Source: Octopus sinensis (Eukaryota). Taken from it: a stretch of 64,000 nucleotides of DNA. Of this stretch, positions 4,942 to 62,369 are shown one piece after another. The position numbers and the translations under genes are program-made. The notes under the pieces are model-generated. The model did no database searches. It was given only the letters and a program-made list of their open reading frames with translations, and was not told where the DNA came from. How positions within the stretch are numbered: the first letter of the stretch is position 1; each line of letters starts with the position of its first letter. The stretch is taken from contig NC_043020.1 of the NCBI RefSeq assembly GCF_006345805.1, positions 22,568,001-22,632,000 of the forward strand, read 5' to 3'.

Positions 4942-6109
4942 CTACAAAATTAAGAATGGAGAACATACTTAAATCAATAAAACATCAACTATCCGATGAT
5001 ACCCAAAATCAATACTTAATACACCATTACATATGAGTAAAGCATTATATAAAATGAGATATACAGTAATAGTAAAAAGATAAAGAGATATAAGTAAAAA
5101 ATTTTTTTCAAATAATATGCAATTAAATCAAACTGACAGCTGTTTCGGCAGTGAGGGCAGTCATACCTCATTTAACCTCTTAGCCATAAGGCAGGTATAA
5201 ATGAGGCTTAACAAGGATGCCCACGGCTCTTCAGAGAATTAAATTAAATTTGTTATAATTGTGAAAATATAATATAAACCATATACATATAAATATAAAA
5301 ATATAAAATGTAAAATATAAAAATAAAAACTTATACATCATAATGCTACACTTATATAATATAATACTTATTGGTACAATAAAGGAAGGTAAACAGAACA
5401 AAATAAAACAAATATTATCAGTGTATACTAATATTATAAGTACCGATATTATACATATTTGGCTATATTTTTTTTTAAAAAAAAACTAACACATAGGGAG
5501 ATGAAAAATATAATTAAAACCATGTTCAGTTCATAAAATTCAAAGCTATGAAAGTTAATAAAAATTACTATTAATATTAATAATAATAATAATAATAAAA
5601 AAAATAATAATAATAGATACAGTTAAGTTAGCACCAAGTCCATCCTTTCAAGATCGAAATAACTATGAGTTTTAGAAATGCTGATCACTAGGTAAAGAAA
5701 TTTAGATTAATTCGATTGGCTATTGGTTTGAAATTTAAATCACAAAAGAAAATTATACGGTTGGTTAGTCACGGAACGCCAATATCACACACGCATCTAC
5801 AGATCAATCGCACATAGTTATATGTATATACATACCTTATACATACATAATCACAAGCAAACAGCACATAGATAAACAAAAAGAAGCAGCTATGCTCCAT
5901 TTAGTCCTTCAAATTATAACTGTGCTTCAAATAACGAAAAGAACCACCACCCTGCATTTCATAAAATATTTAATTTAGATATAATATATTTTTAATATCA
6001 ATATGTTACTAAGTCAGAAAATTAATTCATGGGTAACTTATATATATATATATCAGTAATGCAATGCAAGTATTGCCTTCCAGTAAAAGTAGCCATTTAT
6101 TTACTAATT

Positions 6110-6153
<44 letters not shown>

Positions 6154-6354
6154 CGTGTGTGTTTGTCCCCCTAGCATTGTTTGACAACCGATGCTGGTGT
6201 GTTTATGTCCCCGTTACTTAGCGGTTCGGCAAAAGACCGATAGAATAAGTACTAGGCTTACAAAAGAATAACCCCGGGGTCGAGTTGCTCGATTAAAGAC
6301 GGTGCTCCAGCATGGCCGCAGTCAAATGACTGAAACAAGTAAAAGAGTAAAGAG
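4738..6354 (+). mobile_element. tRNA-derived SINE (family A) split by a ~1.2-kb insert in its internal (TA)n; other copies 6487-6864(-), 22733-23107(+), 30741-31115(+), 45111-46034(+), 48858-49255(-), 51089-51230(-), 51695-52088(-), 54843-55763(-)
   Basis: Head GGCGCAGGAGTGGCTGTGTGGTAAG..GGTTCAGTCCC (Pol III A/B boxes), central (TA/TG)n, tail ..GACTGAAACAAGTAAAAGAG; highly similar across copies. Confidence 0.9.
5133..5236 (-). ncRNA. Hammerhead ribozyme motif (type I, C3-G8 core, long stem II), partly degenerate
   Basis: Minus strand: CUGAAGA - long hairpin (CCUCAUUUAUACCU/AGGUUAAAUGAGG) - C GAAAC AGCU GUC; stem III palindrome ACAGCUGU; stem I has only 2 clean pairs. Confidence 0.6.
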
Positions 6355-7028
6355 CATCTCCTTTCACGGAAAAATAACAGCCTCTCTATGTCTGACAATT
6401 GAATCAGAAGGGTGAAGCATGGGGAAATGGAAAATATTTCATGCAGAAGTTAATTTTGTGAAGAAGTTCATTAAAAGTATTTCAACTTACTCTTACTCTC
6501 TTTTACTTGTTTCAGTCATTTGACTGCGGCCATGCCGGAGCACCGCCTTTAGTCGAGCAAATCGACCCCGGGACTTATTCTTTGTAAGCCCAGTACTTAT
6601 TCTATCGGTGTCTTTTGCCAAACCGCTAGCTAACGGGGACGTAAACACACCAGCATCGGTTGTCAAGCAATGCTGGGGGGACAAACACAGACACAAACAT
6701 ATACGACGGGCTTCTTTCAGTTTCCGTCTACCAAATCCACTCACAAGGCATTGGTCAGCCCGGGGCTATAGCAGAAGACACTTGCCCAAGATGCCACGCA
6801 GTGGGACTGAACCCGGAATCATGTGGTTGGTTAGCATGCTACTTACCACACAGCCACTCCTGCGGATCTTTTCGGTTCGGTTTCAAACCGCAAAGACCCC
6901 AACCTACTGATATAATCTCATATTCATATATCCTAAAGAGTAGATAGACTTCTTTTGAAAATTTAGGTATTATATGTGATTTAAATATTTTATCTTTATG
7001 AAAAATCACATATCTAGTAGAAACACTG

Positions 7029-7279
7029 GGTACTACTAGCGAACAGTGGTCCCGGTGCGCGCACTCGCGTAGTCACGCATCCGCGCTAGCTAGTCGTGAC
7101 TAGTCGATCCTACAACGACTAACTAGCAAAGGAAATAAAACAGAAAATAAATAATTTTTTTTACACAAAGTAAATAAAATCCAAAAACACAAAGTAAGGA
7201 TCGACTAGTCATGACTAGCTGGCATTGATGCGCGACTACACGAGTGCGCGCACCGGGACCACTGTTCGCTAGTAGTACC
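7029..7279. mobile_element. MITE with long TIRs GGTACTACTAGCGAACAGTGGTCCCGGTGCGCG and 9-bp TSD; partial copies 9469-9675 and ~23623-23812
   Basis: Near-perfect ~75-bp inverted ends; TSD GAAACACTG at 7020-7028 and 7280-7288. Confidence 0.9.
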
Positions 7280-7353
7280 GAAACACTGCATTTCCTCGTT
7301 ACCTTAGAACACGTGGAAGGAGACACTACCATTGAGGGTATAATATTTGAGTT

Positions 7354-7555
7354 CGAAAGTGCGGCTGGAGACGAAATCAGCTTCACTCGTTCATAGTGAC
7401 ACGGGGTCATTGGAGAAGAAATAAGGAACTGGTTGAATGTCGATGTGGAAGGAAGACGATGAAAGGTTGCTAAACCTCGTTCTACCAATTAAATATTTGT
7501 TCTGATGGAAACGTATAACATACTGATTAAGTGTTTGCGTTTGAAAACGGTAAGT
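7354..7555 (+). promoter_or_regulatory. Putative promoter / non-coding exon 1 of ZNF gene 1, donor GT at 7550
   Basis: CGAAAGTGCGGCTGGAGACGAAATCAGCTTCACTCGTTC ... AAAACG|GTAAGTTGATAA, a block repeated upstream of every ZNF gene. Confidence 0.65.
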
Positions 7556-8387
7556 TGATAAACGTTCATTTTCAATGGTGTAATAATTCGTTTATTGGCC
7601 AAAAGGGCTGACAAAAATCAATTAAAACATAAAGGGACAAAACACAGGACGAAAGTTACAAAGGGTTTTGTCCGTTTGAAAAAGGTCCGTGTAAAAACAG
7701 TGTAACAACGAAATATAAGTAACAATTAAAACTCCCAATTAGGGAGAGGCGCTTCGAAAGTTTACACGTGGCAAAATCCATAAAAGCCACTGGAGCCTGG
7801 TCAGAAGGGGGGTAGAGAGCCCCTTTCTCCTTTTATATTTCCTTTTTAATTTTCACAGGTGTATCCTCAGAATTGGTCCGTTCATATTATAATAATATAC
7901 GTAAATAATAGAATTGTGGGGGCTCCTTTAGAAAGAAGCGCACCTCTCCAAGAAAAGGGCGCCAAATTTCTAAAAACAAATTATGAAAATGGGAAATATA
8001 TACAAGATCTATGAAGTATGCAAAAAATTAGGAAGATTCATTGATTTTTAAATATTTTATGCTAAAAAATAAAACCACGGAAACGGGCACTCGCGAATAT
8101 AAACAGGCATGTCAGGCGATTATTAAAGATACGAGGGGCCCCGACAGCAACGTTTACAAATTCTTGATTGTTTTTAATCAGATTTTTTACTGCGCACACT
8201 GGTTAGGGTTGAGTGGTGTGGATTCGCTTTATCTTCACCCATTTTATGATGTGATTCCGACGTGGACAAGGAAACTGTCCAGCACGCTATTGTACAATGT
8301 CGGGAGCTATCCAGCTTGATAAGTTACGTCGAACACTTGCTGTCGCATCTGGGACAAGTACAGCTGAATCTATGATAAAGATGATAC

Positions 8388-10612: not shown

Positions 10613-11818
10613 ATGGATTTTCCTGAAGAATTACCAAAGGAGGTGAGAAAATCGTCATACCCCTGTGATATCTGTCACAAGACATTCTCTCTAAAAAGTA
10701 GCCTTATTAATCATAAAATCATTCTCTCGACTACAAACTTTAATTATTCACAAGCACATCCATACAGGAGAAGGGCCATATGGATGTGATACCTGTGGTC
10801 AATCATTCACTCTAAAAAGTCACCTGAAAGATCATAAATGTACTCATACTGATGAAAAACCATATCACTGTGATATCTGTGGTAAATTATTCACTGCAAA
10901 ACGCATATTAACAACACATAGACGTATCCATACAGGAGGGAAAGTGCATAGCTGTGTTACCTGTAGTAAAACATTCACTCAAAAAACTCACTTAAAAGAT
11001 CATAAATGTATCGATACAGGTGAAAAACCATATCACTATGATATCTGGTAAATCATTCTCCCGTACTCATCATTTAATTATTCACAAACGCATCCATACA
11101 GGTGAAAGGCCATATGGATGTGATATCTGTGGTAAATCATTCACTCTAAAAAGTCACTTAAAAGGTCACAAACGTACTCATACAAGTGAAAAACCATATC
11201 ATTGTGGTATCTGTGATAAATCATTCTCTTGGACTGATGGCCTAACTCGACACATACGTAGTCACACAGGTGAGAAGCCATATCAGTGTAACATTTGTGG
11301 TGAATCCTTTTCAGACAGAGGAAATTTAGCTAAACACAAGTTTATTCATACAGGTGAGAAGTCATATCGCTGCGATATCTGTGGAAAATCATTCTTTCAA
11401 AAAGTACATTTATATTCTCATATACGTATGCATACGGGAGAGAAACGATATCACTGTGATATCTGTGGTAAATCATTCTCTTATGGAACGGGATTAACTG
11501 CTCACAAACGTATTTACACGGGAGAAGAGCCTTACAACTGTGAAACCTGTGGTAAATCGTTTTCTCAAAGATGTTACTTAATTAACCATGTACCTATTCA
11601 TACAGGTGAGAAGTGATATCTGTGATAAATCATTCTCTCGTAGTACTGCCTTAATTAGACACAAACGTATTCATACAGGTGAGAAGCCATACCACTGTAA
11701 TGCCTGTGGTAAATCATTCTCATTAAAAGTTCAGTTAAGTAAGCACAAATACTCTCAAACTGGACAGATTCCCTATCTGTGTGTGCGTGTGTGTGTCACT
11801 GAAGCCATTCATACATAA
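10613..11818 (+). pseudogene. C2H2 zinc-finger pseudogene (ZNF gene 1)
   Basis: Starts [15 protein letters not shown] like genes 2/3; frameshifting deletions of 47 nt (~10724), 2 nt (~11046) and 11 nt (~11613); ORF remnants 11020-11616 and 11588-11818; acceptor AG at 10287-10288. Confidence 0.85.
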
Positions 11819-12446: not shown

Positions 12447-15400
12447 ATATATATCATATATTTATGATATATATATGTATACACAGGTAAATTATTAGTA
12501 TCAATATCCTAGATACAATAAATTCTTACCTGTTTCAACTTTGTTCCTTTTAACACTCTTTGAATAGGAACCCTTAAGACCTCATTTAACTCTTGTGCGA
12601 GTATATATATCATATACACAGGTAAATTATTAGTATCAAAATCCTAAATACAATAAATTCTTACCTGTTTCAACTATGTTCCTTTTAACTCTCTTTGAAT
12701 AGGAACCCTTAAGACCTCATTTAACTCTTGTGCGAGTATATATATCATATACACAGGTAAATTATTAGTATCAAAATCCTAAATACAATAAATTCTTACC
12801 TGTTTCAACTTTGTTCCTTTTAACACTCTTTGAATAGGAACCCTTAAGACCTCATTTAACTCTTGTGCGAGTATATATATCATATACACAGGTAAATTAT
12901 TAGTATCAAAATCCTAAATACAATAATTCTTACCTGTTTCAACTATGTTCCTTTTAACTCTTGTGCGAGTTCTTTCCCCCTTCTTTTTTAACTCCTCTAA
13001 TCTCTTTTCGAGATTATCTATCTCTGGATCTGTTTCAGAAAGTATTTTTATACCACGACCAAAAGATGTTTCTCGATGCAGCACAAGCTCTAATTCTTCA
13101 TGAGTTGGTGCATACACAGGTAAATTATTAGTATCAAAATCCCAGATACAATAATTTCTTACCTGTTTCAATTTTGTTCCTTTTAACACTCTTTGAATAG
13201 GAACCCTTAAGACCTCATTGAACTCTTGTGCGAGTATATATATCATATATTTATGATAGATATTTGTATACACAGGTAAATTATTAGTATCAAAATCCTA
13301 GATACAATAATTTCTTACCTGTTTCAATTTTGTTCCTTTTAACTCTTGTGCAAGTATATATATATCATATATTTATGATATATATATGTATACACAGGTA
13401 AATTATTAGTATCAAAATCTTAGATACTATAATTTCTTACCTGTTTCAATTTTGTTCCTTTTAACACTCTTTGAATAGGAACCTTAAGACCTCATTAACT
13501 CTTGTGCGAGTATATATATCATATACACAGGTAAATTATTAGTATCAAAATCCTAAATACAATAAATTCTTACCTGTTTCAACTATGTTCCTTTTAACTC
13601 TCTTTGAATAGGAACCCTTAAGACCTCATTTAACTCTTGTGCGAGTATATATATCATATACACAGGTAAATTATTAGTATCAAAATCCTAAATACAATAA
13701 ATTCTTACCTGTTTCAACTTTGTTCCTTTTAACACTCTTTGTATAGGAACCCTTAAGACCTCATTTAACTCTTGTGCGAGTATATATATCATATACACAG
13801 GTAAATTATTAGTATCAAAATCCTAAATACAATAAATTCTTACCTGTTTCAACTATGTTCCTTTTAACTCTTGTGCGAGTTCTTTCCCCCTTCTTTTTTA
13901 ACTCCTCTAATCTCTTTTCGAGATTATCTATCTCTGGATCTGTTTCAGAAAGTATTTTTATACCACGACCAAAAGATGTTTCTCGATGCAGCACAAGCTC
14001 TAATTCTTCATGAGTTGGTGCATACACAGGTAAATTATTAGTATCAAAATCCTAGATACAATAATTCTTACCTGTTTCAATTTTGTTCTTTTAACACTCT
14101 TTGAATAGGAACCCTTAAGACCTCATTGAACTCTTGTGCGAGTATATATATCATATATTTATGATAGATATTGTATACACAGGTAAATATTAGTATCAAA
14201 ACCCTAGATACAATAATTTCTTACTGTTTCAATTTTGTTCCTTTTAACTCTTGTGCAAGTATATATATATCATATATTTATGATATATATATGTATACAC
14301 AGGTAAATTATTAGTATCAAAATCTTAGATACTATAATTTCTTACCTGTTTCAATTTTGTTCCTTTTAACACTCTTAGAATAGGAACCCTTAAGACCTCA
14401 TTTAACTCTTGTGCGAGTATATATCATATATTTATGATAGATATTTGTATACACAGGTAAATTATTAGTATCAAAATCCTAGATACAATAATTTCTTACC
14501 TGTTTCAATTTTGTTCCTTTTAACTCTCTTGAATAGGAACCCTTAAGACCTCATTTAACTCTTGTGCGAGTATATATATCATATTTATGATAGATATTGT
14601 ATACACAGGTAAATATTAGTATCAAAATCCTAGATACAATAATTTCTTACCTGTTTCAATTTTGTTCTTTTAACACTCTTTGAATAGGAACCCTTAAGAC
14701 CTCATTTAACTCTTGTGCGAGTATATATATCATATATTTATGATAGATATTTGTATACACAGGTAAATTATTAGTATCAAAATCCTAGATACAATAATTT
14801 CTTACCTGTTTCAATTTTGTTCCTTTTAACTCTCTTTGAATAGGAACCCTTAAGACCTCATTTAACTCTTGTGCGAGTATATATATCATATATTTATGAT
14901 AGATATTTGTATACACAGGTAAATTATTAGTATCAAAATCCTAGATACAATAATTTCTTACCTGTTTCAATTTTGTTCCTTTTAACTCTCTTTGAATAGG
15001 AACCCTTAAGACCTCATTTAACTCTTGTGTGAGTATATATATCATATATTTATGATATATATATGTATACACAGGTAAATTATTAGTATCAAAATCTTAG
15101 ATACTATAATTTCTTACCTGTTTCAATTTTGTTCCTTTTAACACTCTTTGAATAGGAACCCTTAAGACCTCATTTAACTCTTGTGCGAGTATATATATCA
15201 TATATTTATGATAACCAGCCAGGATCCCTGGTCTGGTGGTACGTAAAAAGCACTATCCGACTCGTGGCCGATGCCTCCACTGGCTTCCGTGCCGGTGGCA
15301 CGTAAAATACACCAATCTGACCGTATGACAGGCACCCATGCCAACCCCCTTGCTTGCGAAGACATGTTGGGGCAAGCGAAATCGAAATCGAATTGAACCA

Positions 15401-18204
15401 GCCAGGATACCTGGTCTGGTGGTACGTAAAAAGCACTATCCGACTCGTGGCCGATGCCAGTACCCCCTCGTTTGGCTTCCGTGCAGGTGGCACATAAAAT
15501 ACACCAATCCGACCGTGGCCGTTGCCAGCCTCGCCTGGCACCTGTGCAGGTGGCACGTAAAAACCACCCACTACACTCACGGAGTGGTTGACGTTAGGAA
15601 GGGCATCCAGCTGTAGAAACACTGCCAGATAAGACTGGAGCCTGGTGCAGCCTTCTGGCTTTCCAGATCCCCGGTCGAACCGTCCAACCCATGCTAGCAT
15701 GGAGAACGGACGTTAAACGATGATGATGATGATGATATATGTATACACAGGTAAATTATTAGTATCAAAATCCTAGATACAATAATTTCTTACCTGTTTC
15801 AACTTTGTTCCTTTTAACTCTCTTTGAATAGGAACCCTTAAGACCTCATTTAACTCTTGTGCGAGTATATATATCATATATTTATGATAGATATTCGTAT
15901 ACATAGGTAAATTATTAGTATCAAAATCCTAGATACAATAATTTCTTACCTGTTTCAACTTTGTTCCTTTTAACCCTCTTTGAATAGGAACCCTTAAGAC
16001 CTCATTTAACTCTTGTGCGAGTATATATATCATATATTTATGATATATGTATACACAGGTAAATTATTAGTATCAAAATCCTAGATACAATAAATTCTTA
16101 CCTGTTTCAACTTTGTTCCTTTTAACCCTCTTTGAATAGGAACCCTTAAGACCTCATTTAACTCTTGTGCGAGTATATATATCATATATTTATGATATAT
16201 ATCTATACACAGGTAAATTATTAGTATCAAAATCCTAGATACAATAAATTCTTACCTGTTTCAACTTTGTTCCTTTTAACTCTCTTTGAATAGGAACCCT
16301 TAAGACCTCATTTAACTCTTGTGCAAGTATATATATCATATATTTATGATAGATATTTGTATACACAGGTAAATTATTAGTATCAAAATCCTAAATACTA
16401 TTAATTCTTACCTGTTTCAACTTTGTTCCTTTTAACCCTCTTTGAATAGGAACCTGTAGTGACGTCGAGGGGGAGCTTTTGTATATAGGCGAGCAACCTT
16501 GAAAAAAAAATTTTTCGGCGGAGAGGAGCGTCTGCAGCATTACCGCTCAACTCTCTTAGTCTTCTCAAAAATTCAGATCGAGTCCTTTCTCCCAACTCCT
16601 CATCCGCCATTAATTCATTGAAGCGACTTTCTTCGCTTCTAGTGTTCCTCTTCTCCACTTCTAATTTAACAGACGCATAAGTGGCGTCTGGGCCAGGATC
16701 TGTGATAAGATCTCTGGCAGTAGTTGCAAGTTGAGGAGGCATACAACCATACAGGATTTGCAACTGCTGCTGGGAAGAAACATTATGTGCACAAAATTGT
16801 GCCTCTAGCTGCACAAACCACAGTGTGGCATCACCTGTGAAATTAGGTAATGATGTTAGAGACATTTTTATAGCTTTTAACTTTTAGATGATTCTGTCAG
16901 AGGAAAGGTAAACTGACAACGAATCAACGTTGAACAGACGCAACAAGGAAAAAGGGAAAAAGAAAGACCAGCAATTGAACATATATTCTTTATTTTCTTA
17001 TTCACAGAAAGAAGTAAGGTGGTATATTGGTATCCACTTGGTTCTGGTGTGGCAAGGCTGAACTTTAACACTTGTAAGAATCTTACAAGTTCAGCAGCAA
17101 AACAGAGCAGGTCAAATCTTAGCGTCCAGAGACAGTGGAGAAAATAGGTCCGCCACAATCTCGTATGAAGGCGTTCTGGTACTGCTGCTATGCGTGTCTC
17201 TCTGTGCCCTTGTTAAGGGAACGCTGTCCCTCGCCTATCAGCTAATGCCACATCAGCAATTCCTTCTTCAGTCTTCGCGCATGTCCGAGAGGGCACTTCC
17301 CTTCTGCCTTTCCAGAAGGCTCCAACCCCACACACGCACTGAAGAAGGACGTTCCGCACCCCACACTGAAAATGACGTTGCGCGCGCGCACTGTTGTATG
17401 ACGTCACTACAAACCCTTAGGACCTCATTTAACTCTTGTGCGAGTATATATATCATATATTTATGATAGATATTTGTATACACAGGTAAATTATTAGTAT
17501 CAAAATCCTAGATACAATAAATTCTTACCTGTTTCAACTTTGTTCCTTTTAACTCTCTTTGAATAGGAACCCTTAAGACCTCATTTAACTCTTGTGCGAG
17601 TATATATATCATATATTTATGATATATATATGTATACACAGGTAAATTATTAGTATCAAAATCCTAAATACAATAAATTCTTACTTGTTTCAATTTTGTT
17701 CCTTTTAACTCTCTTTGAATAGGAACCCTTAAGACCTCATTGAACTCTTGTGCGAGTATATATATCATATATTTATGATAGATATTTGTATACACAGGTA
17801 AATTATTAGTATCAAAATCCTAAATACAATAAATTCTTACCTGTTTCAATTTTGTTCCTTTTAACTCTCTTTGAATAGGAACCCTTAAGACCTCATTGAA
17901 CTCTTGTGCGAGTATATATATCATATATTTATGATAGATATTTGTATACACAGGTAAATTATTAGTATCAAAATCCTAAATACAATAAATTCTTACCTGT
18001 TTCAACTATGTTCCTTTTAACTCTTGTGCGAGTTCTTTCCCCCTTCTTTTTTAACTCCTCTAATCTCTTTTCGAGATTATCTATCTCTGGATCTGTTTCA
18101 GAAAGTATTTTTATACCACGACCAAAAGATGTTTCTCGATGCAGCACAAGCTCTAATTCTTCAGGAGTTGGTGCATTAACTTGGGCAATGAAGATTGAAA
18201 AATT
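12447..18204. repeat. Tandem satellite, units of 135 bp and ~152-156 bp, with a ~910-bp higher-order duplication; interrupted by a SINE and an LTR-derived element
   Basis: ACACAGGTAAATTATTAGTATCAAAATCC recurs at 12481, 12616, 12751, 12886 ... 14451, 14603, 14757, 14913; a longer variant segment recurs at 12971, 13881 and ~18034. Confidence 0.95.
16455..17411 (-). mobile_element. 957-bp Gypsy (CsRN1-like) derivative: LTR-type ends enclosing a gag N-terminal fragment
   Basis: Ends TGTAGTGACGTC/GACGTCACTACA; 4-bp TSD AACC (16451/17412); ORF from 16865 LPNFTGDATLWFVQLEAQF..Y..VK..LGERTRSEFLRRLRELS. Confidence 0.85.
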
Positions 18205-18614
18205 TTAGGAACATTCATGGCTTTATGGTCGCATTAATTTATACAAATATATTGCATTTGTTACTTATTTATTAGTGGAGGCATGTCAGCATCATGATCG
18301 TAAGATTGTGGTTTTGATTCCTGGACCAGGCGATGCATTGTGTTCTTGAGCAAAATACTTCATTTCACATTGCTCCAGTACACTCAGCTGGCAAAAATGA
18401 GTAACGCTGCAATGGACTGGCGTCCCGTCCAGCTGGGGAACACATATGCCTAAGAAACTGGGCCCATGAGCCTGGCTAGGCTTTTAAAGGGCGCATTTAT
18501 TTATTTTATTCATTTATTAACTGTTAATAAAATGACTTGTGTTTTAACAGAATCAAATTGTTGTTCACTTTTTCCATTTTATTAAATTCAATTATGTTTA
18601 ACATTATTTATTTT

Positions 18615-19987
18615 ACAGTGTGGAAGGGGTTTATAAGCCATTTAAGAAACACACAATAACCATTAGGTTCATTTCAACATTTAAATTTAATTTGTCTAAA
18701 TATTTTCGTCACTTTGAGACCGCGACCTGTTCACTGACAAAACTTCGTGCTGCATCTGAGAAAGTAACAGTTAGTTCATGATATATATTGATATGGAGGT
18801 CAATTCGGAATCAGTGCTATGACCTACTTTTGCTGGTTTGTAGTCTTGAAATCTGGGATATAAAGTTATTGCCTTTTGTTCTGCCAATTCCTGGAAAGAT
18901 TAACGAGCTTCGAAGAGACCTTTGCCCTTTTTCCGGTCAAAGAAGGGTCGAGGAAGCTACCATTTAAAAAGCAGGAGCTGTGAGTCTGTTGGTCAGTTTG
19001 GCCGGAGACAGTGAATTGGTAACAGGGCAGTTTAGGAGTTCTGCCTGAGACAGCAAAAGGGGCCGGAGGAGGCGGTCAGCTGGCGAGAGGAAGACAGGCA
19101 GATAGGATTAAGAAGAGCGATAGGCAATGACAACGTTGAGAAAGACACACAGAGGATTGAGGAGGTGAGGGAGATTACGGTGTGAAGGCATTGGCTCCTA
19201 TTGTAGTAGGAGCTCGTAACGGTATGTTTATTTATGTTTTGATGTGTTAAAGAAGGAAAAAGAATTGTTGAAATGTAAAAGATTGATGTGAAAAAAGGAG
19301 GAAGTACTGAATTAAAGAAATGAGATTATAAAGAACATTGTGAATTGTGTTACAGAGATGTTGAAACAGAAAGAGAAAGACTCTAATGTTGAACTCTGAA
19401 CTGTATCGTTAATGTGAACATTATTTGCCTTAATTTGATCTGAACTGTTGTCTCCAGACTGTATATTGTACCTGCATGCTTTGATCTTGTTAATTTTGTT
19501 GCATGTTATTCTCTTTGATGTACCTTACATTGTATTTGATGTCGTAATTGTCATAAACTGTTGTTAAACGTAAGCCAATTGCTTTCCACCGTGTCTCTTC
19601 CGGCTGTTGTTTGTTGTTGTTCTCTCCGGTTGCCGAGCTCGCTGCCACCTTCCCCCACCGAATTCTCTCTGGGTCCGTGGCGAATTCACCGGTCGATCGT
19701 CGTCGCTCGACTTGGTAGGGTCCCCAGTTTCCGAAGAGTTTGAGCGACGGCAGGTATTCGTAACAATATGTATGTGTGTGTGTATGTATGTGTGCATGCC
19801 TTTATGCATATATGTATGTACCTATGTACTTACGTATGTATGTGAGTATTTAGGAGAGTGTTTAGATGTGTCTGTGCGTTTGAACATGTGAATGTATGTT
19901 TATGTACTGATATGTGTCAGTTCAAGTTGTATACATGACTGTTACCTTGTTGAAGGTTGTATATATGTATACATATGTATACACACA
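18615..19987 (-). mobile_element. ~1.4-kb non-coding insert with a hammerhead-like motif near its 3' end (Penelope-like derivative)
   Basis: Absent from the paralogous site ~39955 (..ATTATGTTTAACATT..|ATCCTTATATTTGCAATC); its end matches the 62152-62369 element. Confidence 0.6.
18691..18741 (-). ncRNA. Hammerhead ribozyme variant, G3-C8 core
   Basis: UUUGUCA GUGAACA G GUCGC-ggucucaaa-GUGAC GAAA AUAU UU AGACAAA; same family as 62253-62303, with a mismatch at the first stem-I pair. Confidence 0.55.
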
Positions 19988-23511: not shown

Positions 23512-23899
23512 CGAAAGTGCGGCTGGCGACGAAATCAGCTTCACTCGTTCATAGGCGATATGTTATTGGAGAAGAAATAAGGAAATGCTTGAATGTCGAT
23601 GTAGAATGAGGTGGATAAAACGGGTGCTACTGGCGAACAGTGGTCCCGGTGCGCGCATCCGTGCTAGCTAGTCGTGACTAGTCGATCCTACAACGACTAC
23701 GCAGCAAAGTAAATAAAACACAAAATAAATCATTTTTTTACACAAAGTAAGGATCGACTTGTCATGACTAGCTGGCGCAGATGCGCACCTGGACCACTGT
23801 TCGCTAGTAGTTGCTAAACCTCATTTTAACAATTAAATATTCACTTTGATAAAAACGTATAACATATTGATTAAGTGTTTGCATTTGAAAATGGTAAGT
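23512..23899 (+). promoter_or_regulatory. Putative promoter / non-coding exon 1 of ZNF gene 2 (contains a MITE insertion), donor GT at 23894
   Basis: Same CGAAAGTGCGGCTGG block and G|GTAAGTTGATAA donor; acceptor at 27402-27403. Confidence 0.65.
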
Positions 23900-26575: not shown

Positions 26576-26576
26576 C

Positions 26577-27148
26577 GCGAGAAAGAAGCAACAAGAATGG
26601 ATAGGTTTTTAGTACGATCGTTTCATACAAGGACAGGTTTTATTAAAAGTTGCAAAGATTACAGCATATAAACGAGTCCCGTACTCATCAGCTAAAATAC
26701 ATGTGAGTTCTCTAGACATCCTAGTGTTTGAGGCTATACTCATGAAGTAATGTAGATAATTAAGTAACATAAACAGATTTCCAAAGTTCTTTAAAGTTCT
26801 TTAAAGAACTTTAATGAACTTTGGAAATCTGTTTATGTTACTTAATTATCTACATTACTTCATGAGTATAGCCTCAAACACTAGGATGTCTAGAGAACTC
26901 ACATGTATTTTAGCTGATGAGTACGGGACTCGTTTATATGCTGTAATCTTTGCAACTTTTAATAAAACCTGTCCTTGTATGAAACGATCGTACTAAAAAC
27001 CTATCCATTCTTGTTGCTTCTTTCTCGCTTATAATCACCCCGCATTACTGTATTGTTAAATCAGTATAGTTTTTTTTTGGTGCATCTAAGTTAGGTACCA
27101 TATTCAAGTAAATTCATTTAAATTAACTTGAATCTTTATTGCTCTTTT
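26577..27148 (+). mobile_element. Fold-back element: 452-bp spacerless palindrome (26577-27028) plus ~120-bp tail, within (TA)n; Penelope-like derivative
   Basis: The 226-bp arms are reverse complements with one mismatch seen (26790/26815); a hammerhead motif in each arm; microsatellite on both sides. Confidence 0.8.
26908..26998 (+). ncRNA. Hammerhead ribozyme (type I, canonical core); mirror copy on the minus strand at 26607-26697
   Basis: UUUUAG CUGAUGA GUACGGGAC..GUCCUUGUAU GAAAC GAUC GUA^CUAAAA: 6-bp stem I, ~9-bp stem II, palindromic stem III ACGAUCGU; predicted cut after 26992. Confidence 0.8.
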
Positions 27149-27731
27149 ATATATATATATATATACACTCACAAACACATATATCCAGTTAGAGGGGAAA
27201 ATCGGATCTTGTGAATTTTTCGAAGTCCTCTCCCCACAACTTGGTAAAGATTTTTCCGACAAATTTGTTTATAATCGTAATGTATGCCTTTTGAAAAGTA
27301 AAGCTCAGTTGTTGAGGTAAATGTAGAATTGTAGTAAACTTTCAGTCATATCTCTGCTTTTTAATCATCTTCAATAACTTAATCTGTTTCTCTGTCATTT
27401 CAGAATAACAGATGACATTGGCACTAAAGCTATAGCATCAATATGTATCAACATTTATTGACAAAAGGAAGATTTTATACAGAAGAACTTACAACTTCAT
27501 TGCAATAAATTTACTGAGAGTTAGTTCTTCGGAGTGAGACATTTCCAATCATTGCCAACAAGGTTCAGGAGATGATTTTATGTTCCATCTAAATTTGGAC
27601 AGATTTTCTAATGAATTTGCTACTGTTTTCTGATGCCAACAAAGATAACAATTGATGGAAATATTGCAGTATCATCAGTGCAGTAATAAATAGTGAAAAC
27701 TATATCAATATAATTGTTGTGTTAACGAAGA

Positions 27732-45292: not shown

Positions 45293-45810
45293 ATATATAT
45301 GAAAAAACAAGTCAAAAATAGAAAATGCTAAGATGATTTTATAGTGAATCTTTCAGTACCGGTTTCGGTCATTTTGAGACCTTTTCAACTGTAACGATTA
45401 AATAATTAAATTTAGAAAAATTTAGAAAAATTAGAAGAAAGGTTTTTTTAAAGGAATACTTCCATAGTAGTGTTCAGATATAGGTGGCATTCTGCCTTTC
45501 TCTGACTCCCTTGTTTGCACTTGTGTATTCGAGGTCGAATACACAACGACCTCGAATACACAAGTGCAAACAAGGGAGTCAGAGAAAGGCAGAATGCCAC
45601 CTATATCTGAACACTACTATGGAAGTATTCCTTTAAAAAAACCTTTCTTCTAATTTTTCTAAATTTAATTATTTAATCATTACAGTTGAAAAGGTCTCAA
45701 AATGACCGAAACCGGTACTGAAAGATTCACTATAAAATCATCTTAGCATTTTCTATTTTTGACTTGTTTTTTCATATATATCAACTCGTGTGTTCCTTTC
45801 CACCCTTATA
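45293..45810 (+). mobile_element. Fold-back element (~240-bp arms, 9-nt spacer, short tail) in the (TA)n of a SINE; Penelope-like derivative
   Basis: Arms ~45293-45537/45547-45781; the left arm has one extra TTTAGAAAAA; a hammerhead variant in each arm. Confidence 0.8.
45683..45720 (+). ncRNA. Minimal hammerhead ribozyme variant, U3-A8 core; mirror copy 45354-45391(-)
   Basis: CAG UUGAAAA GGUC-ucaaaau-GACC GAAAC CG GUA^CUG; stem III palindrome ACCGGU. Confidence 0.7.
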
Positions 45811-47333
45811 CATATATATATATATATATATATGCGTGTGTGTGTTTGTCCCCCTAGCATTGCTTGACAACCGATGCTGGTGTGTTTATGTCCCCGTAAC
45901 TTAGCGGTTTGGCAAAAGAGACTGATAGAATAAGTACTGGGCTTACAAAAGAATAAGTCCCGGTGTCGAGTTGCTCGATTAAAGGCGGTGTTCCAGCATG
46001 GCCGCAGTCAAATGACTGAAACAAGTAAAAGAGTAGATTAAATGTTAGGTGTAATATTTTATGTTGTGGGACTGAGTAAGGATACACATACACACACACC
46101 GATTGAAGTATAATGTACAAGTGGTATCACAAATAGTTGAATAGTATAGTTTTTAGGTAGCATAGTGTGATATATATTTCTTAAATATTATGTAAAACCA
46201 AACCCTGCAAGTTATAAAATTTAATACATGTTGATGTTAGCAGTGGTACCTGGTATTTCAATATTTCAGGTGTAGGAGTCTTTCTTGGGGAAATTTATGG
46301 AGAAAAAGTGTTTGTTAGCTGATGTCTTTGTAGTGTGTGTGAAGGAAGGTTTGATTTGTATTGCTATTAGTCTCCAATCGGCTATACGCAAATAGAACAA
46401 CTCCATCTGGTATGGACAGTGGAATGAGAACAATGTATCCCTGTGGATTTTATAAAGGGTTCAATACCAGACCCAGAACGTTTCTGAATGTGAGAGGCAC
46501 CTGAAGAAGTCCTGAAGGTACAATGACCAAATACACTAGTCCAGATATAATGTATAATCAACAGTATTTATTGTAATATATGTAATCTACAGGTGTATGT
46601 GTAGTTTGTAAATATGTAAACTTGACACAATTTTGTATGATGATATATAACCCTTTAGTATTTAAACCTGTCATATCCGGCCAAAATATTTAATCTGTTT
46701 TATGTTCAAACTGACCAGATCCAGGCTCTCACACCTACCCTACAATGTTATTCTATATTAAGTAATTACACCATCAAGATCTTGAAGATGTGAGATAATG
46801 CATGATTAATTCAAATCAATGGGAATCAATAAGCATTATGTTTGATAGAATAATCTGAACAGTAAAGGGTTAAATAGCATGTTCTAAAGTGAAGTTCACT
46901 TCTTGAGGTGGAAGTTTACAGTTTATCCGTATAGAATTGTTGTAAAATTTCACTATTGAATCTCAATTTTTTTTTAATTATCTTCAATACCTTACACTAT
47001 TTCTCTATCATTTCAGAATACCAAAATATTTGGCCTTAAAGATATATCATCAATATATCAATATATATTTCCATTTACTGTCAAAGGAAGATTTTATGCA
47101 GAAGAGCTACAACTGTTTCTATAAATTTATCATGGAGTTACTGAAAGTTAGTTCTTTAGATTGAGACATTTCTTATCATTGTCTACCAGGTGTACGAGAC
47201 GATTTTATATTCCAACTAAATTTGGACAGATTTTCCAATGAGTTCGCTACCATTTTTTGATACCAACAGGGACAACAGTTGATGGAAATATTGCTGTAGA
47301 AGTGTTTGCATCAGTTCTGTAATAATTTATAGA

Positions 47334-48845
47334 ATGATGAATTTTTCTGAAGAATTGCCGAAGGAGGAGAGAAAATCATCATATCACTGTGATGTCTGTG
47401 AAAAGACATTCTCTCTGAGAAGCAGCCTCACAAATCATAAACGTATTCACACAGGAGAGAAACCATACAACTGTGATATCTGTGGTAAATCATTCACCAT
47501 CAGAAGAAACTTCACTGAACATAGATATACACATACAGGGGAGAAACCCCATAACTGTGATGTCTGTGGTAAATCATTCTCTCAAATGCATACCTTAACT
47601 ACTCACAAACGCATTCATACTGGAGAGAAACCATATGAATGTGATATATGTGCTAAATCATTCTCTGTAAGAAGTAACTTAGCCAAACATATACGTACTC
47701 ATACGGGTGAAAAACCATATCACTGTGATATCTGTGGTAAATCATTTTCTGAAAGCGATAGCCTAACTAGCCACATTCGTATTCATACAGGTGAGAAGCC
47801 ATATCAGTGTGATATCTGTGGTAAATCATTCTCTGAAAGATGTAACTTGGCTACACACAAACACATTCATACAGGAGAGAAGTCATATCACTGTGATATC
47901 TGTGGTAAATCATTCTTTCAAAAAGTTCACTTAAATACTCATAGGCGTATTCACACAGGAGAGAAACCGTATCACTGCAATATCTGTGGTAAATCATATG
48001 CTGAAGGAAACAGCTTAAACAAACACAAACTTGTTCACACAGGAGAAAAACCATATCAGTGTGATATCTGTGGTAAAGCATTCAGTTACAGAAGTTCGCT
48101 AATTGTTCACAAACATATTCATACAGGAAAGAAGCCGTATAACTGTGATGCTTGTGGTAAATCATTCAGGGAGGCAAGTCAGTTGGCAATACACAAAACC
48201 TGCATTCATACGAGAGAGAAACCTTATCATTGCGATATCTGTGGCAAATCGTTCTCCAGTGGGAGTTCGTTAATTGCTCACAAACGTATTCACACAGGGG
48301 AAAAACCATATCAGTGTGACATCTGTGGTAAGTCATTCTCTGAAACGTATAATTTAACTAAACACAAATCTACACATACGGGAGAGAAGCCATACCACTG
48401 TGGTGTCTGTGGTAAGTCCTTCTCTCAAACAGCTCATCTGAGTGTTCACAACCGTGTTCACACAGGCGAGAAACCATATCACTGTGATATCTGTGGCAAA
48501 TCATTCTCTCAAACAAGTCATTTAACCATTCACAGACGTATTCATACAGGGGAGAAACCCTATCAGTGTGAAATTTGTGGTAAATCTTTCTTCCAAAATA
48601 GCGATGTGACTAAACACAAACGCATTCATACGGGAGAAAAGCCATATGGCTGTGATATCTGTGGTAAATCCTTCTCTGGAAGTAGTGCTTTAACGACTCA
48701 CAAGAACATCCATATAGGAGAAAAACCATATTGGTGTGATATCTGTGGTAAATCGTTTTTTCAAAATAGTGATTTGACCAAACACAGATATATTCATTCT
48801 GAGAATCGGTTTTCTTCTGACTCAACCACAGATTGCAGGCATTAA
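47334..48845 (+). CDS. Tandem C2H2 zinc-finger protein (ZNF gene 4), 503 aa, 17 fingers
   Basis: Intact ORF; N-terminus [16 protein letters not shown] homologous to the other genes; one HX4H finger. Confidence 0.95.
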
Positions 48846-58635: not shown

Positions 58636-58870
58636 CATATATTATATATACATATATATATACATACATATATATATATATATATACATACATATATATA
58701 TACATACATATATATATATATACATATATATATATACATACATATATATATTATAATATACATTATATATATATATATATATATATATAATAATATATAT
58801 ATATATGTATATATATACATATACACACACACACACACACACAACACACACACACATATATATATATATA
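57898..58870. repeat. ~1-kb compound (TA)n/(TACA)n/(CA)n microsatellite
   Basis: Directly visible; shorter tracts at 4885, 6110, 26520, 55610, 59105 and 62020. Confidence 0.97.
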
Positions 58871-58878
58871 GTTATATC

Positions 58879-59050
58879 GGAGTAAACACATAAATGTGAA
58901 ACAAGGTGGAAAAAAGAGTACTCAAATACCAGTGGTAGAGTAATATGCTTTATTTAAAGCAGCAGAAAATTCAACAAAACCTGTTACGGCAACGGGAAAC
59001 TCAGAGTAAAAGGTTTTGTTGAATTTTCTGCTGCTTTAAATAAAGTATAT
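58879..59050. mobile_element. Short fold-back insert whose spacer holds the 3' half of a hammerhead
   Basis: Arms 58943-58987/59006-59050; spacer CG-GCAA-CG G GAAAC UCAGA GUA; TATATAGTTATATC repeated on both flanks. Confidence 0.6.
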
Positions 59051-59104
59051 AGTTATATCTGTAAATGGCGAAGTTATCTTACCGTTTTTATCAATATACA
59101 TAAT

Positions 59105-59175
<71 letters not shown>

Positions 59176-59334
59176 AATTAGAAAAAAAAACACCTTTTAT
59201 CAATTCAAAATTTGATTTAGTATTTCTAAATTGATTTTTTTCCCTTGTAAGTTTGGATTTTATTCCCTCAATTAATAAACATTATATATATATATGCAAG
59301 GGAACGTTACCGCTGAGTTTGTTCTATTCGAGAT

Positions 59335-59527
59335 CGAAAGTGCGGCTGGAGACACTGAGCCAGCTTCACTCTAGATTCTATTGTTGAGCTTGTTTGGAGC
59401 TTTGCGTCGCCGAGAAAGGAATCCTTGGACAATTCTCTCGTTTCCAGCAATCAGAATATTTACTGGCGGAGTTCGACGACAACGCAGAACACAATTCATT
59501 CGTTGTTTACATCTGCCAACGGTAAGT
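59335..59527 (+). promoter_or_regulatory. Putative promoter / non-coding exon 1 of ZNF gene 5, donor GT at 59522; donor-less duplicate at 62718-62918
   Basis: CGAAAGTGCGGCTGGAGAC.. and CAACG|GTAAGTTGATAA; acceptor at 63524-63525. Confidence 0.6.
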
Positions 59528-62029
59528 TGATAAATGTTTGTTTTAATGCTGTAGTAATATCATTTAAATAATAGAATTGTGTCCCACTTGTCTGATAAGG
59601 TAATCATGGTAATTGTATGAATGGGGACAAAATATATAAACGGCATTGGTAAAAGATGTTTTCTTCAAGAATACAGGAATTATACTGAACTGAAAATAAT
59701 AACAATGTGAAGTATATTTGTCGTGCAGTTATTGTCTATACCTCGTTCAGAGATTTATTATTAAAATAATAACAATTTGGGGGAAAATATTTCCATATTC
59801 TTTTCTATAGATCTTATGATCAGAGCAAAAAAATTGTGCAATAGGTGTAAAACAACTTGCTCTAAACGAATATGAAAAAAAAAAAAAACGCGCGCTCGCG
59901 AAAGGGGTGGGGGGAGAGGACTTGGTAAAAAATAACATCGTGAATGTTTCGAGCCGCTTCACCGGGGCCAAGAAACAAAATAAAAATAAAAATAGCGTAA
60001 TATATGTAAAACTACTTGCTGTATACGAATACGACAAAAAAAAAAAATAATAAAACGATCGTGAAAGTGTGAGGGAGAGGGGGTGAGAGGACTCGGAAAA
60101 TTCACATCGTCAAACTATGGCCTTTAAATTATAGTGTTTGACTCGAGCCGGGAAAAAAATAGTGTAATTGGTGTAAAACTATTTGCTCTATACGAATATG
60201 ACAAAAAAAAAAAAAAATGCGCGCTCACGAAGGGGTGGGGGCTCGGAACCATCACGGTGTGAATTTTCCGAGTCCTCTCCCCCACCCCCTTTCGCGAGCG
60301 CGCATTTTTTTCATATTCGTTTAGAGCAAGTTGTTTTACACGTATTACACTATTTTTCTTTTGTTTTTTTGCTCGGGTAACAATCCTGCTTAGATGCTGT
60401 AGATTCAGAGTCCATAGAGATTTATTGGATACAATTTCCCAAACGGTTGGGGAGAGGAGTTTCGGAAAATTCACGCGATCTGACTTTTTTCCCACATAAC
60501 TTTCAGGAAAATGGATATCTTTTAATGAAAATCTATACAAATACTTTTCGAACGGCACAGATTATGAATTTGTGGGGAAAATTTCTTCCTAGTGGGGAGG
60601 AAGAGGAGTATCGGGAAAATGGTGTTTCGGATGAAGACCACGGAATTTCTCAACAAACCCTCGGTTGTTTCCGTGAAAACTCGACAATTCACTTCGGGTA
60701 TCTTCGTCACAGTTGTCTGTGTCTGTGCGTGCTTACACTCACACACACACAGACAAGAACAAGCATGCACACACACACATAAACGCACAAGCACGCACGC
60801 AAACACACACAGACAAGAACAAGCACGCACACACACACAACCCAGTTGCTTCTTCTCTCATTTTAGCAGCTGTTTGTATAAAAACTACCCTAACGTTACT
60901 GTGGCTATTTTAGCAGGGACTTTATGGCTGGATGCTCTTCCTAACCTCAATCACACGACAGAGTGGGCTCTGTGCTTGTTACGTGACACTAGCACTGGTG
61001 AGGTTAGTTTTGGCATGGTTTTTACAACTGGATGCCCTTCCAAATACCAACCACATTACAGTGTGGAGTGGATGCTTTTGACTTGGCAGCAGCCATGTAT
61101 ATCAATACAAAATTGTTAAGTTTCAATGTTGAATGTCTACACTTAGTCTGGCCTTGTCTCACGTATCACTCCACCACTACGTCACCCTAGGTCTGGTTGG
61201 GACTTTGCACCAGCCCTAAATTTGGTCTGTGATACCCAGTAAACTATTCTTGTTGGGGTTTTTTTTCTGCAATTTCAACCAATCAGTGACGTCTATTGAA
61301 GTAAAAAGCATTCTGTGCCTCGTTTAAGAAACAGATTGGGTTTATTTACATTTGTGAAGAAAATAAAGATACCCTTCCCTCCACCCCTAACCCTAAAACA
61401 TATTGAAATGCAATAGATCGATACTAGGGTTATAATTATGGGTGACAATTTCATATGACACTGCTAGAAAAACTGCCGTTCAAACCGAAAAGTTCCCTAT
61501 CCTTTAATACGAATAATATTAAGAATGACTGTTAAAGTTTTGGCTAGCCATCAACGGATTATAGCTGAAACTTTGATGTCGCCGTCAATATTTTCCTTGT
61601 TAAAGAATAATTAATTTGGTTGTATCTGGGGAGAGTCATTTTCTTTTTGTGCCTTATAATGTAACACACTCACCGGTAAAATTTCCACTCATTTCTTATT
61701 TTTATTTTCCTAAAATTTCCGTTGCGTCTTGCAACCTTTTCAATAGTCTTGACTCTGTCCGTTATTTACACTGCATTCCTTTTTGTTTGTTTGTGCGCAT
61801 TTGTGTGGGTCAGTGTGTGTGTGTGTAGCTATATACCATGCAAGTTTTGGCTAGATAGCCATCAACGGATTGTGGCTGAAACTTTGATGTCGCTGTCAAT
61901 ATTTTTCTTGTTAAAGAATAATAAATTTGTACTCTACCAAATGTACATTAATATATATATATATACTACTGAACACTACTTGGTAAAATTATTAATTAAT
62001 TTTACCCTTTTATTATTGACTATATATAT

Positions 62030-62079
<50 letters not shown>

Positions 62080-62084
62080 TATAT

Positions 62085-62369
62085 ATTTATTTATTTACGG
62101 AGATGCACTTGCATAGCGAGTGAATTGATCTGAGATCGTGTGCTGAAACGAAAACAATTGCAGCGTGGAAGATGTTTATAAGCCATTTAAGAAACACCCA
62201 AAAACCGTTAGATTCACTTCAACATTTAAATTTAAGAGATGGAGCACGGAGTTTTGTCAGTGAACAGGTCGCGGTCTCAAAGCGACGAAAGTATTTTGAC
62301 AAATTAAATTTAAATGTTGAAGTGTGTTTCTTAAATGGCTCATAAACACCTTCCACGCTGCAATTGTTT
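62085..62369. mobile_element. Fold-back insert in (TA)n; arms 62152-62235/62304-62369, with a hammerhead variant in the spacer
   Basis: AAACAATTGCAGCGTGGAAG.. / ..CTTCCACGCTGCAATTGTTT; same family as 18615-18757. Confidence 0.75.
62253..62303 (+). ncRNA. Minimal hammerhead ribozyme variant, G3-C8 core
   Basis: UUUGUCA GUGAACA G GUCGC-ggucucaaa-GCGAC GAAA GUAU UU^UGACAAA: perfect 7-bp stem I, 5-bp stem II, one extra G after A9. Confidence 0.65.

Follow-up and report, generated by a model that had tools for sequence, protein, structure and literature searches.

The terminal repeats (pLTRs) of metazoan Penelope-like elements (PLEs) carry minimal type-I hammerhead ribozymes (Cervera and de la Pena, 2014; PMC4209133). 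In the parts of that paper drawn on here, these motifs have an extra base between positions 9 and 10.1 and a palindromic helix III, and they are mostly solo, with opposite-strand pairs 100-700 bp apart also described; ~1,300 matches in S. mansoni have a U3-A8 core, UUGAAAA. For small PLE-associated hammerheads with a diminished palindromic stem III, cleavage in dimeric form is reported (Lunse et al., 2017; PMC5785218). In Poseidon PAc of Anolis, the hammerhead is located at the pLTR, an optional tail of 30-40 bp arises from two internal starts of reverse transcription, nicking is in AT-rich DNA, and cleavage is protein-assisted; an engineered C3G/G8C double mutant gave partial rescue (Frangieh et al., 2024; PMC11167929). 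Cleavage by PLE hammerheads is poor, and insertion in vitro still takes place with mutants (PMC4209133; PMC11167929). PLE insertions are described as having an inverted 5'-truncated copy, a 30-40-bp tail at one end and a bias towards (TA)n (Craig et al., 2021; PMC8557442). Metazoan non-LTR retrozymes, which are small and ORF-less, also carry a type-I hammerhead and are thought to be mobilised by PLEs (PMC7761336). These descriptions, and the comparisons below, refer to excerpts of the papers cited.

Motifs of this kind are present in a 64-kb window of Octopus sinensis DNA, the window being the whole stretch that was analysed. They lie in six inserts, assigned to five families (A to E), in a region that also contains zinc-finger exons:

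26576..26802, minus strand: family A, left arm; inverted, lacks the tail, full ribozyme with its core from 26691, stops in (TA)n
26803..27060, plus strand: family A, right arm; full ribozyme; tail from 27030, its end not defined
26908..26980, plus strand: family A ribozyme, 5' half; stem I 26908-26913, C3-G8 core CUGAUGA 26914-26920, stem II domain 26921-26980
26981..26998, plus strand: family A ribozyme, 3' half; GAAA 26981-26984, palindrome 26984-26991, A17 26992, stem I 26993-26998
45293..45537, minus strand: family B, left arm; inverted, lacks the tail, full ribozyme with its core from 45388, stops in (TA)n
45547..45811, plus strand: family B, right arm; full ribozyme; 30-nt tail 45782-45811, then (TA)n
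45686..45717, plus strand: family B ribozyme; U3-A8 core UUGAAAA 45686-45692, stem II 45693-45707, GAAA 45708-45711, palindrome 45711-45716, A17 45717
18613..18781, minus strand: family C, 18.7-kb copy without fold-back; core (G3-C8) at 18734-18728, then an extra G and stem II; palindrome AAUAUU, U17 18698
62098..62235, minus strand: family C, left arm; ribozyme-free 3' portion of the element, whose 54-nt tail (62098-62151) runs out into (TAAA)n and (TA)n
62236..62369, plus strand: family C, right arm; ribozyme in the fold-back loop; tail-less end in (TA)n
62253..62286, plus strand: family C ribozyme at 62 kb, 5' half; stem I 62253-62259, G3-C8 core GUGAACA 62260-62266, extra G, stem II 62268-62286
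62287..62303, plus strand: family C ribozyme at 62 kb, 3' half; GAAA 62287-62290, stem III 62290-62295, U17 62296, stem I 62297-62303
4941..5240, minus strand: family D insert; imperfect motif, no fold-back, 5' boundary undefined
5234..5135, minus strand: family D ribozyme; C3-G8 core CUGAAGA 5234-5228, GAAA 5146-5143, palindrome 5143-5136, C17 5135
58879..59045, both strands: family E fold-back; left arm (minus) with a 69-nt tail 58879-58947, right arm (plus) with a half ribozyme
58996..59008, plus strand: family E half ribozyme; GAAA 58996-58999, near-palindromic stem III 58999-59007, A17 59008
10996-11616, 27726-29282, 37453-39012 and 47283-48845: C2H2 zinc-finger exons

The layout is N3 U G A N N8 A...GAAA...UH, with a Watson-Crick pair at positions 3 and 8 that is C-G in A and D, U-A in B and G-C in C; E has the second box of the core only. 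Stems I and II close the core in A (stem I 6 bp; stem II domain 60 nt, with 7 basal pairs including 3 G-U; stem III palindrome ACGAUCGU), in B (stem I 3 bp, stem II 4 bp, palindrome ACCGGU) and in the 62-kb copy of C (stem I 7 bp, stem II 5 bp, stem III AGUAUU, one mismatch off a palindrome). They are imperfect in the 18.7-kb copy of C, where the palindrome is perfect and the first pair of stem I is broken at 18697, and in D, which has an 81-nt stem II hairpin (z -3.3) that is irregular at its base, a stem I of just 2 bp and the palindrome ACAGCUGU. The sequence-only reading had claimed at least four complete minimal type-I hammerheads in unrelated inserts, plus a half motif at 58987. Each of the six coordinates it gave falls on the edge of a stem I or of a box in a hammerhead-like motif, and the half motif is indeed present, as GAAA, stem III and UA at 58996-59008 without a CUGAnGA box. 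Since D and the 18.7-kb copy fail a strict descriptor, the word complete applies to A, B and the 62-kb copy of C. The inserts are unrelated as claimed, the five families having only AT-rich words of 11-19 nt in common.

A strict minimal-hammerhead descriptor with a Watson-Crick-paired 3-8 core matched three independent loci in the window (A, B and C at 62 kb), against 46 matches in 1000 dinucleotide-preserving block shuffles, i.e., 0.046 per window by chance; two matches in one shuffled window occurred in none of the 1000. These are real hammerhead-like layouts, as first observed. That they are chance matches within MITE-like or other hairpin repeats is hardly credible. In its favor, other fold-backs in the window have no hammerhead motif, and no insert reaches the gathering score of an Rfam hammerhead model, the sole match being HH9 for B (23 bits vs. 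52, E 0.3); these models appear to fit minimal forms poorly. Besides the shuffles, however, the majority letters of family C in public runs improve its stems, and the tails are one-sided rather than symmetric terminal repeats; together with the metagenome and viral counts given below, this has largely refuted an origin by chance.

Like the motifs of Cervera and de la Pena (PMC4209133), those of the window have a short stem I, G10.1-C11.1, a palindromic helix III and an extra base after A9 (in family C), they occur as solo and opposite-strand copies, and many unrelated families are found per genome; the core of family B is the U3-A8 core of S. mansoni. In contrast, the 56 motifs aligned there include neither a G3-C8 core nor a cephalopod, and the stem II domains of A and D (60-81 nt) exceed those listed. 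The diminished palindromic stem III and PLE association recall the hammerheads of Lunse et al. (PMC5785218), whose dimer model is applied here by analogy: the palindromes of A, B and D are computed to form self-duplexes of -8 to -11 kcal/mol and to be unable to fold into monomer hairpins. With Poseidon PAc, the inserts share a pLTR hammerhead, a tail at one end and AT-rich targets, but G3-C8 is natural here, tails measure 30-69 nt, and no ORF start is evident inside the ribozyme (PMC11167929). The Naiad PLEs of octopus likewise have (TA)n targets, a tail and inverted copies but, as described, no canonical hammerheads (Craig et al., 2021; PMC8557442). In the supplement of that paper, as far as it was searched, Naiad 3' ends compared by eye did not match the window families, and words from the ribozymes of A, D and E were absent. 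Like retrozymes, the inserts are small and ORF-less with a type-I hammerhead. Retrozymes, however, consist of monomers in tandem, have the classical tertiary contacts and give circular RNAs, whereas the motifs here are minimal and the inserts are tailed fragments in inverted arrangement (PMC7761336).

The insertion anatomy was earlier read as mostly inverted duplications with a short tail in (TA)n. A (TA)4+ run lies within ~12 nt of an end in all six inserts (random positions: 0.06 within 15 nt); fold-backs with an inverted truncated copy were found in four of the six (A, B, C at 62 kb and E), but not in D, whose ~190 nt of 3' sequence stop at (TA)n 4904-4937, or in the 18.7-kb copy of C, which abuts (TA)n and has no tail. 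One-sided tails measure 30 nt in B, 54 nt in C, 69 nt in E and ~30 nt in A, with an undefined end. A 14-nt direct repeat flanking E (58865-58878 and 59046-59059) is likely a target-site duplication. The right arm of B is part of a stretch that 20 public runs from 12 studies contain, no RNA run being on record among those listed. An AG that resembles a splice acceptor lies at stem I or close to it in A, B and C, where it may correspond to the PLE intron end near helix I. No tandem copies of the inserts were found in the window.

The inserts are probably short ORF-less pLTRs of at least five PLE families, each with the minimal hammerhead of its parent and one with a likely compensatory G3-C8 swap. 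This is supported by the excess of descriptor matches over chance, by the palindromes that pair with each other rather than form monomer hairpins, and by an anatomy that equals the published one. Against it, no remnant of reverse transcriptase (RT) or GIY-YIG was found in the 64-kb window (best tblastn E 0.16 with the L187 and L191 metagenome proteins described below), so that PLE membership is deduced from architecture, and the Pfam scores of L187 are below cut-offs. Pfam and homolog searches with the reading frames adjoining the motifs were blank or spurious; the 63-aa arm frame of A has no homolog, and the 40-aa frame of B matches only two repeat-rich unrelated proteins. The earlier proposal of Penelope-dependent ORF-less elements has partial support, from anatomy and from linkage in another organism. 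It was overstated insofar as U3-A8 cores, diverse families, copies paired on opposite strands and dispersed copies without an ORF were already reported (PMC4209133); leftover ends of Penelope-type elements, the likely nature of these inserts by analogy, are a known phenomenon.

A PLE protein encoded elsewhere would nick AT-rich DNA, and reverse transcription would begin at either of two internal sites on the element RNA, yielding copies with or without a tail. A second, inverted priming event would give the fold-back, and early termination would leave just the 130-270 nt around the ribozyme. A dimer would form in the parent RNA through the palindromic stem III of two ribozymes, and cleavage would take place in this dimer, probably with help from the PLE protein.

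The arms of A and B are 99-100% identical and form near-perfect hairpins of 230-245 bp among zinc-finger exons, which might suggest domestication by the host as regulators of these genes, either as self-cleaving switches or as long double-stranded RNA for editing. We consider this very improbable: in a read-through transcript, the ribozymes are buried, 80/80 nt of A and 33/33 nt of B being paired to the opposite arm, and the identity of the arms indicates young insertions. Family C is abundant elsewhere, and its presence here needs no special cause.

In public run X1, the ribozyme segment of family C has a summed contig depth of 1.4-1.9 million, vs. 27-99 in the listed single-locus contigs, contig depth not being equal to copy number. 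At 18697 and 18711, the majority letter in four public runs allows pairing (in X1, with 96% of depth at 18697), and no variant at core position 3 or 8 is among those listed; G3-C8 is the majority core of the family in public runs. The 54-nt tail matches loose ends before 18616 in public-run contigs, and six of the 15 listed joints are opposite-strand. The palindrome AAUAUU has a computed self-duplex of merely -0.2 kcal/mol and the cleavage triplet is UUU, so catalytic activity may be very low. The exact family C pattern had no match in metagenome contigs. The profile of run X14, which is RNA by guess, mirrors that of DNA and was left out of the evidence.

Immediately upstream of stem I, depth drops ~2000-fold within ~50 nt (1.9 million to 770), and loose ends among those listed in X1 pile up at 18755 (41 contigs), 18757 (51) and 18788 (44), which argues against random 5' truncation. 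Possibly, but rather doubtfully, family C, and perhaps other families too, is no longer debris of truncation but an independent non-autonomous element that has fixed ends, is ~200-230 nt long and is amplified in a SINE- or retrozyme-like manner by a PLE protein in trans, perhaps from spliced and unspliced short leader RNA. The right arm at 62 kb begins at the 18757-class end, and a putative 3' splice site (18781-18756, resembling branch point, pyrimidine tract and AG) stops exactly at this class; a head-to-tail joint has a depth of 1587 in X4 and 95 in X3, and SINE-like tandem hammerhead repeats were noted in D. willistoni (PMC4209133). However, this rests on 24 listed loose ends, with 879 further ones outside the listing, and on contig depth, which is not copy number; PLEs, too, normally show a steep 3' bias, and no tertiary-contact motif between stems I and II of the classical retrozyme kind was seen. 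Such an element would differ from a pLTR fragment in the origin of its copies, not in ribozyme ancestry. The 980 nt upstream of the 18.7-kb copy (18789-19765) were considered as a PLE body and rejected: they have TG...CA ends with ATAT on both sides, a depth ~500-fold below that of the ribozyme segment and no notable protein or Pfam match, and are likely a solo LTR inside a microsatellite.

A generic scan for G3-C8 cores in metagenome contigs found stems I and II formed at 16/121 loci, against 0/363 for three non-canonical cores in viral contigs. As viral contigs are nearly devoid of minimal hammerheads (C3-G8: 1/120), the latter scan gives a background rate rather than a test of the 3-8 pair; matches of the loose pattern there are unspecific. 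At two metagenome loci, L187 and L191, a G3-C8 hammerhead is linked to an RT and GIY-YIG frame. In L187, a 318-aa frame with RT and then GIY-YIG motifs (Pfam RVT_1 E 2.5e-4 and GIY-YIG E 3.2e-3, scores under curated cut-offs) precedes the hammerhead, and an inverted tailed copy lies at its 5' break. In Atlas, its neighbours (0.95-0.96) belong to eukaryotic clusters that carry HTH_animal, GIY-YIG and RVT_1; a PDB search gave a best E of 0.09. An avoidance of C17 by G3-C8 cores is unsupported, since L157-type and L221 motifs carry C17 (the pattern allowed C or U only). This metagenome family has no sequence in common with family C. Given the G3-C8 majority in abundant family C and the unrelated G3-C8 at an RT/GIY-YIG frame, G3-C8 is a natural PLE core and probably arose more than once.

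Position 8 of the hammerhead supplies a 2'-OH, and its pairing with position 3 keeps it in place, so that the active fold is maintained by C-G, by U-A and by G-C alike. The sequence-only reading took 3-8 covariation as a sign of selection on catalysis. Among the family-level motifs seen in this analysis and the 56 rows aligned in PMC4209133, every non-canonical core is indeed Watson-Crick at 3-8. Inside the window, however, the covariation is weak: it involves two non-canonical families, and of the four independent matches to a descriptor free of the 3-8 requirement three were paired, against 46/200 chance matches (p ~0.04), the fourth, at 59592, having C-A at 3-8 and probably being a chance match. 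The G3-C8 swap in one abundant family likely reflects selection for RNA cleavage. Improbably, the motifs might instead be ribozyme-shaped but unselected for cleavage, e.g., a protein-binding or splice-related pLTR fold with 3-8 swaps through drift or an overlapping frame. The frame of L191 does read through its G3-C8 core, hammerhead mutants of the anole element inserted unaffected in vitro, with no reads ending at the cleavage site in the data described (PMC11167929), and Naiads proliferate without canonical hammerheads (PMC8557442); yet the consistent pairing preserves an active-fold contact, and two G3-C8 families have no common sequence. Selection can have acted on progenitor elements only, as the ribozymes of A and B are fully paired with the antisense arm in a read-through transcript and 18 distinct inserted copies of the metagenome family showed no compensatory changes. 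Purifying selection would then concern the transposing parents, most inserted copies probably being inert.

Minimal hammerheads, fold-backs, tails and U3-A8 are known biology in one more genome; the added result is G3-C8, for which literature searches returned engineered mutants and no natural ribozyme, although Lunse et al. (2017; PMC5785218) may list such cores or octopus families. With less than even confidence, we propose that natural G3-C8 cores were fixed independently in several PLE lineages, including the abundant SINE-like 200-nt family here, were missed by CUGAnGA and U3-A8 descriptors, and offer comparative proof of in vivo selection on PLE hammerhead catalysis despite its dispensability for insertion in vitro. 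A natural G3-C8 core that persists in unrelated successful families, and that takes two changes via an inactive intermediate to arise, is what selection on the active fold would be expected to leave, and natural G3-C8 families would be ready constructs for testing the role of PLE hammerheads. CUGAnGA descriptors do overlook the UUGAAAA and GUGAACA families, as anticipated, whereas descriptors widened to any Watson-Crick 3-8 pair recover whole abundant families and may serve as a marker to class short unannotated repeats as PLE-derived.

An earlier sequence-only reading had placed hammerhead motifs in several unrelated inserts. Its six motif coordinates are all correct, and sequence comparison separates the inserts into five families (A-E) without kinship to one another. 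The descriptor used for a minimal type-I hammerhead left core positions 3 and 8, which pair in the hammerhead, unconstrained; it demanded a stem II of at least four pairs starting with G-Y, a stem III palindrome with no more than a single mismatch, UH, and a stem I of at least three pairs. It gave six matches, representing four independent loci in the window. The complete layout originally described holds for families A and B and for the 62-kb copy of family C (C-62kb), but families D and E and the second C copy, at 18.7 kb, fall short of it.

Hammerhead motifs in the window
26914 (+), core of family A, mirror at 26691 (-); C3-G8, the canonical pair; descriptor match
45686 (+), core of family B, mirror at 45388 (-); U3-A8; descriptor match
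62260 (+), core of family C; G3-C8; descriptor match
59592, match with an unpaired C-A at positions 3 and 8; descriptor match
5234-5228 (-), core of family D; imperfect, misses the descriptor
18734-18728 (-), core of the second copy of family C; imperfect, misses the descriptor
58996-59008, family E; second hammerhead box only

Since 1000 block shuffles, which yielded 200 descriptor matches, 46 of them with a paired core, never gave two paired cores in one window, the motifs are far above chance level. Three of the four loci have a paired 3-8 core, versus a fraction of 0.23 among the shuffle matches; pairing alone is modest evidence for the covariation claimed earlier (p ~0.04). Rfam matched the window with HH9 at family B alone, below threshold.

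Families A, B and E and the C-62kb insert form fold-backs. The arms of A and B are 99-100% identical, and these insertions are therefore young. One arm only carries an extra tail (~30 nt in A, 30 in B, 54 in C and 69 in E), (TA)n lies within ~12 nt of one end in all six inserts, and the family E insert is flanked by a 14-nt direct repeat. Inverted 5'-truncated copies and a (TA)n bias are known from Penelope-like elements (PLEs) (PMC8557442). According to the folding computations, the stem III palindromes cannot form a hairpin in a monomer and pair with themselves instead (-10.0 kcal/mol in A, -8.3 in B, -11.1 in D, only -0.2 in C), which, as modelled, is a dimer design. PLE hammerheads are described as cleaving as dimers, with low activity (PMC4209133, PMC6765202). 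In read-through RNA, the ribozymes of A (80/80 nt) and B (33/33 nt) are predicted to be fully paired with the antisense arm; that of C is predicted to lie in the fold-back loop, with 0/38 nt paired to the other arm. A splice-acceptor-like AG follows a pyrimidine-rich tract at stem I in A (26906-26913) and B (45679-45685), and one is found in C ~15 nt before stem I (18781-18756, -), where it coincides with one class of 5' ends. This resembles Penelope, in which an intron ends at helix I.

Other repeats share the window, whose zinc-finger exons and repeats suggest that the DNA comes from an octopus. In the fold-back at 31253-31518, the arms are 129 nt long (98%) and one side extends further, as in the PLE inserts; no hammerhead box was found in it, and it may be another PLE-type end. 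The arms of a fold-back at 21610-21937, which we take to be SINE-like, are ~85% alike. Two related GC-rich elements (7029-7279 and 23627-23810) are MITE-like, their A-rich centre being enclosed by long inverted repeats at the termini, and degenerate inverted-repeat elements at 4029-4297, 25499-25631 and 59829-60368 are DNA-transposon-like. A ~190-nt tandem repeat (16300-17800) is broken by a presumably gag-like frame (16401-16883, -), with a related copy at 12914-13297. Judged by eye from translation, 1392-1808 (-) is presumably a Pogo/Tigger-like transposase fragment, and ~20500-21550 (+) presumably holds LINE RT remnants.

Contigs of four public sequencing runs were aligned to 18490-19750 at 80% likeness. 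In one run (X1), summed contig depth, which is not copy number, reached 1.4-1.9 million over 18619-18747, against 130-190 in the left flank, 450-7900 in the right flank and 27-99 in single-locus contigs among those listed. This contrast marks family C as a very abundant repeat, and it is present in all three DNA-like runs. The majority letters repair the first stem I pair of the 18.7-kb copy (96% of depth) and give a stem II G-C pair (87% of depth); core positions 3 and 8 show no variant among the 40 rows listed, with 68 more existing. As 6 of the 15 joints listed are opposite-strand, family C forms fold-backs at other loci too; one head-to-tail joint is multi-copy. Among the 24 loose ends listed, with 879 more existing, there is a concentration 20-50 nt upstream of the C core, which suggests a less likely alternative, that family C is a short element with fixed ends. 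The stretch at 18789-19765, upstream of the 18.7-kb copy, is a repeat of ~980 nt bounded by TG...CA and flanked by ATAT at either end; it is moderately multi-copy in the public runs and probably represents an unrelated solo LTR that landed in a microsatellite.

Searches of the 64-kb window for RT or GIY-YIG remnants came back negative, and the G3-C8 core was therefore sought in PLEs generally. A generic pattern found at least 121 loci in metagenome contigs, 16 of 121 forming stems I and II (two on one contig); in viral contigs, a different collection, the counts were 0/363 for three non-canonical cores and 1/120 for the canonical one. Among the loci listed, one family has at least 20 distinct loci and a sister family at least four.

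G3-C8 hammerhead loci in metagenome contigs
L187:2405-3910, L191:3-617 and 18 further loci, main family
L157, L170, L181 and L239, sister family
L221, further minimal hammerhead locus

The contigs look eukaryotic and many motifs lie in tailed fold-backs; 8 of the 26 loci compared are fold-backs. L187 encodes a 318-aa frame in which RT motifs (Pfam E 2.5e-4) precede GIY-YIG motifs (E 3.2e-3), both scoring below cut-offs. Its neighbours in the Atlas, at 0.95-0.96, belong to eukaryotic clusters in which 92-96% of members have HTH_animal and 12-28% have GIY-YIG and RVT_1. The G3-C8 hammerhead follows ~300 nt downstream, and the 5' break carries an inverted tailed copy. In L191, the endonuclease frame continues through the ribozyme. 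Three copies outside the pattern's picks kept G3-C8 in two cases and had A3-C8 in one. Inserted copies of the metagenome family showed no compensatory changes, as expected under neutral decay. Since this family shares no sequence with family C, the swap, judged from sequence, probably arose at least twice.

The proposed dependence on PLEs is consistent with the insert anatomy and with L187. Most probably, the inserts are fragments of the PLE terminal repeat (pLTR) and were produced by a PLE protein whose gene lies elsewhere. In another PLE, nicking is AT-rich, two internal RT starts explain the tail, and hammerhead cleavage is assisted by the protein, although insertion in vitro did not need cleavage (PMC11167929). 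By analogy, a PLE protein from another locus would nick AT-rich DNA and start reverse transcription at either of two internal sites, with or without the tail, and the parent RNAs of the window families would undergo protein-assisted and dimer cleavage. In the published PLE, C3G or G8C abolishes activity and the double change rescues it partly (PMC11167929). Selection on catalysis, if real, would lie with the parent elements and not with the window copies.

The finding in the window is real and largely known already: PMC4209133 describes minimal hammerheads of PLEs, how diverse they are, pairs on opposite strands, and U3-A8, and natural U3-A8 is also found in PMC3088659. Penelope-like families are annotated in an octopus genome as well (PMC13282606). 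G3-C8 is absent among the 56 aligned motifs of PMC4209133 and, in the excerpts available from the literature searched, occurs in engineered mutants only (PMC3884650, PMC8495972); a 2017 survey of PLE hammerheads, outside that search, may contain natural ones. The novel part, a modest one, is that PLE-type families unrelated to one another carry G3-C8 as a natural core.
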